Below, in pieces: positions 27,298-28,715 of a stretch of 64,000 bases of DNA (positions are counted from its first letter, which is position 1; every line of letters starts with the position of its first letter). This DNA is from Escherichia coli. Lineage in GTDB: Bacteria; Pseudomonadota; Gammaproteobacteria; Enterobacterales; Enterobacteriaceae. Under the pieces are notes generated by a model. It did not search any database. It saw nothing but the letters and a program-made list of their open reading frames with translations, and was not told the DNA's origin. The position numbers were made by a program, and so were the translations under genes. The stretch lies in the NCBI RefSeq assembly GCF_029227855.1, contig NZ_CP074356.1; one strand, 5' to 3'.

Positions 27298-28323
27298 TTA
27301 AAATAGCAATTGAGTCAAATAGCCCATCAAGATAGCCATACCTAATATAACCGTCAGGAATGCAGCTATCATCGGCATTCTGAACATTGATTTAAGTAAT
27401 ATCACTTCCGTCAGGCTTGCGCCGGCACTGCCGATGATTAATGCCATTAATGCTCCCAGACCCATTCCTTTTGTCATCAGAACAGATGCCAGAGGGATAA
27501 CTGCCTCAGCCCGGATATACAGCGGAATACCGACAACGGCGCTTAATGGGATGGCGAAGGGATTATCTGCTCCTGCATGAGCGGCAATCCACGCTGAGGG
27601 AATAAAGCCATAAATAAAAGAGCCTATTAATACCCCTAACAAAAGATATGGCAGTACATCTTTAAACTGTTGCAACGCATCTTTGGTGGCTAGTTTTATG
27701 GGATTAATACTTGCCACTGCTTTGGTATTGCAACAGTTAACGACGGGTTTCTCAATGGCTTTAGCCGTTGGACTACAGCAACTCACTTCTATTGGCGTAT
27801 ATGTCGTCCCCGGCAAAGTTTTTGCCGACGCTTTGGCTGGAGCACAACAATTTGCTGATGAGCTTTTACTGGCAATGATATGACGTTCAAACCCCAGAGA
27901 ATCCAGGATAATACTGGCAAGAACGGAGACGCCGGTGGCGATAATCGCGTACAACAAGGTGACTTTCCAACCAAAGGTCACCCACATTAGTCCGACGATA
28001 ATGGGATTAAGTAATGGTGAAACAAATAAAAAAGTGAGAGTCGGACCAAACCCGGCTTTCGCTGACAACAATCCACGTAACATGGGTATTGTCGAGCAAC
28101 TACAGAACGGGGTAACGGCTCCCAACAGAGCAGCCAGGAGATAGCCTCTCCCTTTTCTGGCCCCCATCATCTGCTGGATTTTATGGTCTGGCACCTTTTG
28201 TCTTATCAGGCTGACACCGGCACTAATCACTATAAACAGCAACGAAAGCTCGACGGCGAGAAACACAAACATCTCTGCGGCATCTTGCAGCATCGCAAGC
28301 CAACTACTCATACGTAACCTCAT
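27298..28323 (-). CDS. ArsP-like membrane permease (DUF318-type) with TPFCSCS motif and a Cys-pair-rich loop
   Basis: ORF 341 aa, polytopic; AVTPFCSCSTIP motif; loop with NCC, SCC and NCC pairs; alternative start at 28311 has a better SD. Confidence 0.65.
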   Translation of the reverse strand: MRLRMSSWLAMLQDAAEMFVFLAVELSLLFIVISAGVSLIRQKVPDHKIQQMMGARKGRGYLLAALLGAVTPFCSCSTIPMLRGLLSAKAGFGPTLTFLFVSPLLNPIIVGLMWVTFGWKVTLLYAIIATGVSVLASIILDSLGFERHIIASKSSSANCCAPAKASAKTLPGTTYTPIEVSCCSPTAKAIEKPVVNCCNTKAVASINPIKLATKDALQQFKDVLPYLLLGVLIGSFIYGFIPSAWIAAHAGADNPFAIPLSAVVGIPLYIRAEAVIPLASVLMTKGMGLGALMALIIGSAGASLTEVILLKSMFRMPMIAAFLTVILGMAILMGYLTQLLF

Positions 28324-28418
28324 TGGATAAATCTATATTTCCAGAATAATCGAAATGAAATTCAGATCAAGATATTTCTGGTATTATCGAAATATCAACC
28401 AGACAAAGGGGGTGTCAT

Positions 28419-28715
28419 ATGCAGTTGGAAGAAGTTGCTAAAGCGCTGAAAGAGCTAGGTCACCCGACCCGTTTGTTCATATTCAAACACCTGGTCAAAG
28501 CGGGGGAGCAAGGTTTGCCGGTCGGTGAGTTGCAAAAGCAGCTTGGGATACCCGGCTCTACACTCAGTCACCATATTTCAGCACTGGTATCGGTAGGGCT
28601 GGTTAAACAAAACCGTGAGAGTCGGACGCTGATGTGTGTTTCGCAATACGCAATGCTGGAAGCGATAATTGAATTCTTACGCGAGGAGTGCTGCGTAAAT
28701 AGCAAAATTGCCTGA
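28419..28715 (+). CDS. ArsR/SmtB-family transcriptional regulator (second copy, C-terminal Cys pair)
   Basis: ORF 98 aa, HTH (PTRLFIFKHLV...GELQKQLGIPGSTLSHHISALVSVGLV), lacks the ELCVCDL motif but ends REECCVN; divergent from the permease. Confidence 0.7.
   Translation: MQLEEVAKALKELGHPTRLFIFKHLVKAGEQGLPVGELQKQLGIPGSTLSHHISALVSVGLVKQNRESRTLMCVSQYAMLEAIIEFLREECCVNSKIA

Follow-up and report, generated by a model that had tools for sequence, protein, structure and literature searches.

A conserved regulator–permease gene pair beside the arsenic-resistance genes of Escherichia coli, a probable sensing and efflux module for trivalent arsenic compounds

The arsC–yhiS interval

The window, a 64,000-nucleotide stretch of E. 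coli DNA, carries two divergent genes between arsC and the yhiS pseudogene, one for a small regulator and one for a permease (Table 1). The regulator matched Pfam HTH_20 (E=2.4e-14) and HTH_5, and scored 61.9 bits against the NCBIfam ArsR/SmtB model NF033788 (cut-off 55), confirming the original prediction of a divergent 98-residue protein of this family. The longest permease ORF (27298-28323, minus strand) encodes up to 341 amino acids, as predicted, but translation likely starts at the second ATG (28311), giving a protein of 337 residues. This is the start chosen by RefSeq and in all homologues, and a conserved GAGG lies 7 nt 5' of it. Because the permease starts at 28311, the intergenic region measures 107 bp, not the 95 bp given earlier. 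Both ORFs are true genes rather than chance ORFs, since comparison with Escherichia fergusonii gave dN/dS ratios of 0.19 (permease) and 0.07 (regulator), indicating purifying selection on both, and since orthologues occur in 80 species.

A repeat search of the intergenic region revealed two operator-like dyads of the form ATTTC-N10-GAAAT, spaced 37 bp apart. On the permease strand, dyad B shares positions with promoter-like hexamers. Across seven taxa ranging from Aeromonas to E. coli, both dyads fall in conserved blocks, set in intergenic sequence that has otherwise diverged. In E. coli the permease gene adjoins arsRBC yet forms a separate divergent unit. The palindromic spacer between the regulator gene and arsC, which we take to be of the REP type, gave short high-identity matches in thousands of genomes.

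Table 1. Positions of genes, motifs and control elements in the window.
Feature	Coordinates	Strand	Remarks
Permease gene, PF03773 ("ArsP_1")	27298..28311	−	337 aa; two homologous helical halves
Central hydrophilic loop, ~residues 145-203	27703..27879	−	three vicinal Cys pairs: NCCAP, SCCSP, NCCNT
TPFCSCS motif, residues 67-73	28093..28113	−	read from sequence; proposed thiol substrate site
Divergent control region, 107 bp	28312..28418		between permease and regulator
Operator-like dyad A, ATTTC-N10-GAAAT	28337..28356		permease-proximal
Operator-like dyad B, ATTTC-N10-GAAAT	28374..28393		regulator-proximal
ArsR/SmtB regulator gene, 98 aa	28419..28715	+	divergent from permease; between arsC and yhiS pseudogene
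Regulator C73	28635-28637	+	
Regulator C91-C92	28689-28694	+	
Palindromic spacer	28716..28837		between convergent regulator gene and arsC; outside the module, separates two transcription units
arsC	28838-29263	−	
arsB	29276-30565	−	
Canonical arsR (ELCVCDL)	30619-30972	−	
Segment absent from K-12 and 58% of complete E. coli genomes	approx. 27058..28645		whole permease gene, control region, first ~75 regulator codons

Cysteine sites and family relationships

Residues 1-72 of the regulator contain no cysteine. The type-1 CxCxxC site of R773 ArsR in the α3 region is therefore absent and, as predicted, there is no cysteine where the chromosomal ArsR has ELCVCDL. The thiols are instead C-terminal: the protein ends in EECCVNSKIA, which holds the predicted vicinal pair C91 and C92, and its third cysteine is C73, not C72. 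The regulator and the chromosomal ArsR share the ArsR/SmtB fold, a predicted role as small autoregulatory repressors and a single locus, whereas the regulator gene is transcribed separately, from a two-dyad control region of its own.

The closest solved relative of the regulator was Acidithiobacillus ferrooxidans AfArsR (PDB 6J05), which was matched at E=4.7e-10 with the single sequence and at E=3.9e-14 with the family profile, as against 6.6e-9 for the next hit. An ungapped alignment superimposed the ECC motifs and placed C91-C92 exactly on C95-C96 of the AfArsR type-2 As(III) site (C95/C96/C102). The relocated thiols agree with the earlier proposal of a second, differently wired sensor at the locus. 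The regulator has no C102 equivalent, because its chain stops six residues past the cysteine pair, at residue 98; a tail free of cysteine was also seen in 31 of 56 homologues. It does possess C73, in the wing/pre-α5 segment, where AfArsR-type proteins have no cysteine. C73, C91 and C92 were invariant in all 56 homologues (at least 45% identity), and E90 was present in 53. The invariance of C73 suggests a three-coordinate site. Such a site could equally respond to inorganic As(III)/Sb(III) or to a soft metal, so that selectivity for organoarsenicals is tentative.

A comparable protein is SpArsR of Shewanella putrefaciens, which is reported to control arsP and arsH; in Salmonella, a regulator of the E. 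coli type has arsH on one side and a PF03773 permease on the other. The two proteins, SpArsR and the E. coli regulator, share a vicinal pair at the position of AfArsR C95/C96 and the lack of a C102 equivalent, but the E. coli family has C73 as a third invariant cysteine. PMC11868830 and PMC13236881 describe SpArsR, with the vicinal pair only, as selective for MAs(III).

The permease matched PF03773 over its full length (E=4.2e-53; residues 13-338, model positions 3-293 of 294). Its assignment to the ArsP Pfam/TCDB family (2.A.119) therefore stood, but orthology to the organoarsenical permease ArsP of Campylobacter jejuni is not supported. Permeases from the ars operons of Campylobacter and Helicobacter relatives (Campylobacterota), used as stand-ins for C. 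jejuni ArsP and taken from a representative search and a cluster look-up, were only 31–33% identical to it, about the same distance as other subfamilies; a methyltransferase-linked PF03773 paralogue was 30% identical. The best NCBIfam match was the SO_0444 Cu/Zn efflux family NF033936, at 107.6 bits far below its cut-off of 300. SaoE (NF040736) gave 85.9 bits against a cut-off of 325, with no SAO genes in the neighbourhood of the locus, and all the PF03773 subfamilies tested scored alike and sub-threshold. By sequence, the permease is a member of a separate PF03773 subfamily. A literature search on the E. coli pair and on this subfamily found no paper.

The permease has in common with C. jejuni ArsP (TCDB 2.A.119.1.1), an MAs(III)/roxarsone(III) efflux permease encoded in an arsP-arsR-arsC-acr3 operon, its Pfam/TCDB family, two repeat halves with a hydrophilic loop, a TPFCSCS-type motif, ars linkage and ArsR-type control. 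The stand-ins, one of which (P0415) sits in an arsP-arsR-acr3 operon, differ in having none or one CC pair in the loop as against three in E. coli, and in being accompanied by a co-directional R773-type regulator (LCVCDL) rather than a divergent AfArsR-like one.

The TPFCSCS motif had been taken as a signature of organoarsenical (ArsP) permeases. It proved to be common to the whole superfamily, Cu/Zn exporters included: in an alignment of 66 diverse PF03773 proteins C70 was present in all and C72 in 59. In the predicted structure, these two residues flank a break between helices 55-66 and 71-83. The AF2 model comprises two helical halves (1-144 and 204-337) joined by a disordered loop (145-203, pLDDT ~50). 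In orthologues the loop is hypervariable in sequence and length (39 to 137 residues among aligned homologues), yet always rich in Cys and CC.

Loss from K-12 and gene context in other genomes

As predicted, K-12 MG1655 has neither gene, and its arsC and yhiS lie 628 bp apart. Among 5426 complete E. coli genomes, the pair was found in 2221 (41%) and a deletion scar in 3166. The scar was resolved by local blastn, a MAFFT global alignment of the window having misplaced it; ~70 nt of the regulator 3' end remain in K-12. The gor-dinQ-arsRBC-regulator-permease synteny is identical in E. fergusonii, and dS values of the pair relative to that species are about those of arsB and arsC. Together, the synteny, the dS values and the regulator remnant establish that the K-12 state is a deletion, and the suggestion that the pair is an accessory insertion was rejected. 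A possible second K-12 remnant in mid-permease (window 27632-27692, 67% identity) was too weak for use.

Permease orthologues in the 80 species were 46–75% identical to the E. coli protein, and an ArsR-type regulator accompanied them in 58–61 species. At least eight lineages had orthologues within or next to ars operons, the permeases inside such operons being 46–61% identical to that of E. coli. The gene order was arsR-arsD-arsA-permease-acr3 in Craterilacuibacter (L015), acr3-arsD-arsA-permease-regulator in Endozoicomonas (L047) and likewise at locus L037, with no regulator on its short contig, arsR-acr3-arsD-arsA-permease-regulator in Vibrio sp. CK2-1 (L054), and permease-arsR-acr3 in Methanimicrococcus (L065). 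The arsC-regulator-permease geometry was common to E. coli, E. fergusonii and Citrobacter prophages carrying arsRDABC. A Salmonella mobile element carried arsRDABC together with arsH (TIGR02690, 405.6 bits; cut-off 292), the latter downstream of the regulator on the same strand and divergent from the permease. On an IncFIB plasmid of Salmonella Infantis, the permease was followed divergently by regulator-arsH-sigma factor-arsD-arsA. A Desulfovibrio conjugative element had the pair abutting a cluster in which arsR and acr3 accompany genes for a methyltransferase, ArsM-like by Pfam, and for a PF03773 permease. These contexts in several taxa tie the pair to arsenic, in line with the original prediction.

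Over 600 enterobacterial plasmids carried the pair, and copies reside on hundreds of conjugative plasmids. In about 70 of the 80 species it was solitary, and a query set that excluded ArsH (tested separately), LMW-PTP ArsC, ArsI and ArsJ detected no ars gene up to 8 kb away; the same was true of Aeromonas and of truncated IncF plasmids. Neighbour clustering found no universal partner gene besides the regulator, and LysR hits were probably due to chance.

A putative module for trivalent arsenicals, and its alternatives

Conserved beside standard arsenic-resistance genes, the pair most likely senses and expels trivalent arsenic compounds. We consider it probable that it is a self-contained two-gene detoxification module, in which an arsenical-responsive repressor controls an efflux permease for trivalent, probably organic, arsenicals. 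From the features described above we infer DNA binding, inducer, transported substrate and direction of transport as follows. The regulator, presumably a homodimer, would bind the two dyads and repress both genes of the pair. A trivalent arsenical would be bound by the thiolates of C91-C92 at the C-terminal end of α5, the position used in AfArsR and SpArsR, with C73 as a possible third ligand, and the repressor would then leave the DNA. The derepressed permease, a predicted secondary transporter of ArsB/DASS-like fold whose two halves resemble inverted repeats, would export the arsenical through the Cys-Ser-Cys site at the helix break, and its CC-rich central loop may catch dithiol-reactive species. 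The likeliest substrates are trivalent organoarsenicals, such as methylarsenite and reduced phenylarsenicals, e.g. roxarsone(III). Since ArsB does not handle such compounds, the module would complement arsRBC.

A more far-reaching version is tentative, and we hold it to be possible rather than probable. The regulator family would add to the known ArsR metalloid sites one of a kind not described before: C73 from the wing/pre-α5 segment, possibly of the other subunit, would complete C91-C92, and an S3 arsenic site would have been invented independently once more. The CC pairs of the permease, which resemble biarsenical-binding tags, would form a capture arm feeding the Cys-Ser-Cys site, and the pair would be a widespread, unrecognised organoarsenical resistance determinant of Enterobacteriaceae and conjugative plasmids that is absent from K-12.

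The same S3 site, made up of C91, C92 and a C73 perhaps contributed by the other subunit, could instead serve a module for inorganic As(III)/Sb(III), with the permease as an alternative arsenite carrier, perhaps coupled to ArsA. The joint invariance of the three cysteines is consistent with this, as is the ECC-x5/6-C motif of the AfArsR-type regulators in ars operons L015 and L012, which have no cysteine at the C73 position, as if C73 stood in for the third ligand. The permease gene also directly follows arsD-arsA in L015, L037, L047 and L054, and PMC6205960 cites a suggestion that ArsP might work coupled with ArsA. However, ArsB or Acr3 is already encoded in these operons and at the E. coli locus, so that one more As(III) carrier, wholly redundant, would be a less parsimonious assumption. 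According to the same text, C. jejuni ArsP, the sole arsenical member whose transport has been characterized, exports MAs(III) and Rox(III) but does not extrude As(III) (PMC6205960). The arsH gene on the regulator's strand likewise points to organoarsenicals, ArsH being an organoarsenical oxidase by the title of Chen et al. (2015a), as listed in PMC6205960. A module for inorganic arsenic is thus unlikely, although it is the strongest of the alternatives.

We regard it as more doubtful still that the pair exports soft metals (Zn, Cu, Cd, Hg) in the manner of SO_0444 or Shew_3410 and senses them through its ArsR/SmtB protein. The permease shares with these proteins its superfamily and the CSC motif, and their family is its top-scoring curated HMM; mutants of SO_0444 and Shew_3410 are sensitive to Zn/Cu (PMC3219624; bioRxiv 10.1101/072470), loops rich in CC pairs might bind Hg, Cd or Cu, and the majority of orthologous pairs are not beside ars genes. 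Yet the score lies far under the cut-off and differs little from those of the other subfamilies. Moreover, SO_0444 and Shew_3410 go with a ZntR/MerR regulator and have no described ars linkage (PMC3219624; bioRxiv 10.1101/072470), whereas the regulator here is AfArsR-like, and MerR/ZntR-type genes were absent from the recurrent neighbours in the 80 species. Placement in ars operons was repeated, but among the 80 loci none was seen embedded in a czc, cop, znt or mer cluster. Sensors of the SmtB/CzrA type carry His/Asp/Glu ligands in α5, and the regulator sequence is without them.

A thiol-redox or reactive-sulfur sensor of the BigR/YgaV kind, controlling a transporter of sulfur compounds, is very improbable: YgaV and BigR appear among the PDB hits, in Shewanella sp. 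D64 the pair has a gene resembling those of thiol-disulfide oxidoreductases next to it and in the Salmonella element a TauE-family gene nearby, but AfArsR is clearly the better match, the BigR score is sub-threshold (NF040642, 38.5 bits; cut-off 155), neighbour clustering found no recurrent sulfur-metabolism gene, and the BigR-type reading was rejected on the missing α2 cysteine, which is Lys23 in the regulator and K, R, N or Q in all 56 homologues.

If the organoarsenical module is real, about two in five E. coli strains possess, unlike K-12, a further arsenical sensor together with a pump for organoarsenicals, and arsenic tolerance measured in K-12 under-represents the species. The hypothesis lends itself to testing, since strains differ naturally and cleanly in having or lacking the pair at this one locus. 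The module would also be a possible marker for selection by microbiota that produce methylarsenite or by phenylarsenical feed additives, and the regulator with its two conserved dyads would provide a ready-made biosensor part, possibly of new selectivity. The same sensor and pump would be present in E. fergusonii, Aeromonas, many Vibrio and Shewanella, and on the enterobacterial plasmids. Of the plasmids with the pair, the S. Infantis IncFIB plasmid described above came from chicken meat.

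The locus and its history in E. coli

The window consists of chromosomal E. coli DNA (27200-28800 is 100% identical to strain CFSAN029787), with slp and a yhiS homologue that carries a frameshift, then the permease (-), the regulator (+), arsC-arsB-arsR (-), dinQ and gor. Open reading frames and family matches confirmed the predicted permease and divergent ArsR-type gene between arsC and yhiS. The 341-residue permease originally predicted is a possible reading, but the likely product has 337 residues, as RefSeq and every homologue begin at 28311, a start preceded by a conserved GAGG. 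The control region therefore measures 107 bp, not 95 bp. Public annotation goes no further than 'permease' and 'ArsR/SmtB family transcription factor', and a literature search found no paper on the regulator-permease pair. The yhiS homologue, annotated as frameshifted, is free of the IS5 insertion that disrupts K-12 yhiS. The gap separating arsC from the convergent regulator gene is filled by what we take to be a REP-type palindromic element, which explains thousands of short matches in other genomes.

Features of the window and of related loci
Feature	Position or locus	Detail
Permease gene (PERM)	27298-28311 (-)	337 aa, MSSW...; longest ORF starts at 28323
Regulator gene (REG)	28419-28715 (+)	98 aa
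First operator-like dyad	28337-28356	ATTTC-N10-GAAAT, 20 bp
Second operator-like dyad	28374-28393	ATTTC-N10-GAAAT, 20 bp; 37 bp from first
TPFCSCS motif	permease residues 67-73	
yhiS homologue	25602-26717	
yhiS-proximal intergenic DNA	26609-27057	
Palindromic element	28716-28837	
Second E. coli version of the pair	L013:7600-9000	strain E69
SigZ-like genes	L100:5208-5753; L076:6309-6905	L100, S. Infantis plasmid CP052816
Loci with ars genes	L015	arsR-arsD-arsA-PERM-acr3
	L037	acr3-arsD-arsA-PERM
	L047	acr3-arsD-arsA-PERM-REG
	L054	arsR-acr3-arsD-arsA-PERM-REG
	L065	PERM-arsR-acr3
	L016, L024, L041, L044	

The pair is absent from K-12, as had been supposed, but the evidence argues for deletion there rather than for the accessory insertion first suggested. 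Synteny is identical in E. fergusonii (gor-dinQ-arsRBC-regulator-permease), and dS between the window and that species is similar for the permease (0.25), the regulator (0.30), arsC (0.20) and arsB (0.17); dN/dS is 0.19 for the permease and 0.07 for the regulator. K-12 retains, beside the REP element, ∼70 nt with homology to the final 23 regulator codons. Among 5426 complete E. coli genomes, scored for at least 80% of the module or of the K-12 scar allele, 2221 carried the module and 3166 the scar, together 99%. The evidence thus points to a pair inherited vertically with arsRBC and later lost by an old deletion.

The yhiS-proximal intergenic DNA matches K-12 at just 91% identity; for scar alleles of other strains the figure is 90-100%. 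Divergence near the scar seems high for a single species, which suggests old alleles at this locus. In E. coli E69 the chromosome holds a further version of the pair (75% and 86% amino acid identity), beside yhiM rather than arsC; it occurred in none of the 5426 genomes.

The permease

Over its whole length the permease fits the Pfam family PF03773 'ArsP_1' (E=4.2e-53). The TPFCSCS motif had been taken as a mark of ArsP, but it is a hallmark of the whole superfamily: C70 occurs in all 66 aligned sequences and C72 in 59 of them, and CSC is common to the SO_0444 Cu/Zn efflux and SaoE families. It therefore cannot identify an organoarsenical pump. The sole NCBIfam matches were SO_0444 (107.6 bits, cut-off 300) and SaoE (85.9 bits, cut-off 325), and every subfamily tested scored comparably, below threshold.

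A sequence search for solved relatives of the permease returned none. A confident AlphaFold2 model, based on 66 sequences (pLDDT 87.3, pTM 0.83), has two mutually homologous helical halves (1-144 and 204-337) and a disordered loop (145-203). TPFC (67-70) is unwound in the model, breaking helix 55-66 from helix 71-83, which opens with S71, C72 and S73. Between E. coli and Aeromonas the transmembrane halves hardly change. The loop differs in both length and sequence but remains rich in vicinal cysteine pairs, three in the window and one to seven in orthologues, as compared with none or one in Campylobacter/Helicobacter permeases.

The latter share 31-33% identity with the window protein; one (P0415) is encoded in an arsP-arsR-acr3 operon that resembles the one described for C. 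jejuni (PMC3598800). Of two paralogues on a Desulfovibrio element, the regulator-linked one is 56% identical to the window permease and the methyltransferase-linked one 30%. On these identities the window permease is assigned to a separate orthologous group.

The regulator and its control region

The regulator matches Pfam HTH_20/HTH_5 and scores above the NCBIfam ArsR/SmtB cut-off. As predicted, the helix that carries ELCVCDL in the canonical ArsR next door is free of cysteine here. Its three cysteines are C73, C91 and C92; the one noted outside the terminal pair is thus present, its position slightly corrected to C73. The closest solved relative is Acidithiobacillus ferrooxidans ArsR (AfArsR, PDB 6J05; E=4.7e-10 for the sequence alone and 3.9e-14 for a profile of 20 family members; runner-up YgaV, 6.6e-9). 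The two align without gaps at an offset of +4, FLREECC on YLTENCC, placing C91-C92 on C95-C96, two of the three type-2-site As(III) ligands of AfArsR (PMC11868830). The third, C102, has no equivalent, because the chain ends six residues after C92. This is the state described for Shewanella putrefaciens SpArsR, which responds to methylarsenite and not to arsenite (PMC11868830, PMC13236881).

C73 is as conserved as C91-C92: all three are invariant in 20 diverse homologues and in 56/56 homologues from species-level loci. AfArsR-type regulators encoded by ars operons (L015, L012) show ECC-x5/6-C but lack a cysteine at the C73 position. C73 may therefore substitute for the tail cysteine as third ligand. 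The regulator fits neither the AfArsR nor the R773 site definition in full, and it lacks the BigR/YgaV redox pair since K23 occupies the alpha2 cysteine position.

Both dyads are conserved blocks amid diverging intergenic flanks (E. coli, E. fergusonii, Citrobacter, Salmonella, an IncF plasmid, Aeromonas and E. coli E69) and overlap promoter-like hexamers. The promoter count in the control region was no higher than shuffled expectation, and promoter positions therefore stay inferred.

Genomic context and predicted substrate

With each species represented by one genome, a scan gave 80 loci with orthologues 46-75% identical, mainly from Vibrio, Shewanella, Photobacterium and other marine Gammaproteobacteria; some Alphaproteobacteria and one archaeon also occur. 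An ArsR-type regulator was present in 58-61 of them, mostly divergent and directly upstream, and ars genes shared the locus in about nine. Outside this set, arsRDABC precedes the pair in Citrobacter prophages; in a Salmonella mobile element arsRDABC comes before arsH and the regulator, which share a strand, the permease lying on the opposite one; and on an S. Infantis IncFIB plasmid the permease diverges from regulator-arsH-SigZ-like sigma factor-arsD-arsA, followed by IS26. On the Desulfovibrio conjugative element the pair adjoins a cluster containing arsR, a methyltransferase gene that is ArsM-like by its Pfam families, a PF03773 permease gene and acr3. The pair is solitary in Aeromonas, most marine species and truncated IncF plasmids. 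By a rough estimate the ars linkage was judged far above chance, because an ars cluster spans a few kb of a several-Mb genome.

By sequence, the pair is placed in the PF03773/2.A.119 and ArsR/SmtB families, outside the definitions of SO_0444, SaoE and BigR. C. jejuni ArsP, which exports methylarsenite and roxarsone(III) but not As(III) (PMC6205960), shares the PF03773/2.A.119 family, kinship being judged through the Campylobacter/Helicobacter stand-ins. Organoarsenicals are the most economical predicted substrate, because these operons have an ArsB or Acr3 of their own and arsH accompanies the regulator; C. jejuni ArsP offers the precedent. The module is a putative functional counterpart of ArsR-ArsP(-ArsH) organoarsenical systems.

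In Alistipes and Acetobacter MAGs (L016, L024), an ArsR gene precedes two tandem PF03773 paralogues of different subfamilies, after which comes a small thioredoxin-like gene; this suggests distinct substrates per subfamily within one operon. A SigZ-like ECF sigma factor (TIGR02959, 140-145 bits, slightly below the cut-off of 168.65), absent from the window, recurs on the regulator side in the two tabulated loci and 11 more marine loci; it lies between arsH and arsD on plasmid CP052816 and adjoins the regulator in 12/80 species (Vibrio/Shewanella).

In PLSDB, a permease homologue (E<=1e-20) was found on 857 plasmids, at 80% identity or more on 220 and at 60-80% on 423; 566 are conjugative, hosts are mostly Escherichia and Salmonella, and several of those listed are chicken-derived (plasmid loci include L003, L004 and L100). 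On E. coli IncF plasmids, IS26 or TnAs1 directly follows the pair, where the S. Infantis plasmid has arsH-arsD-arsA. The sequenced temperate Citrobacter phage Chris1 (L099, ON041214) carries the pair at 68% identity, and Chris1-related Citrobacter prophages (L005-L007) carry arsRDABC and the pair as cargo adjoining dinI and rusA.
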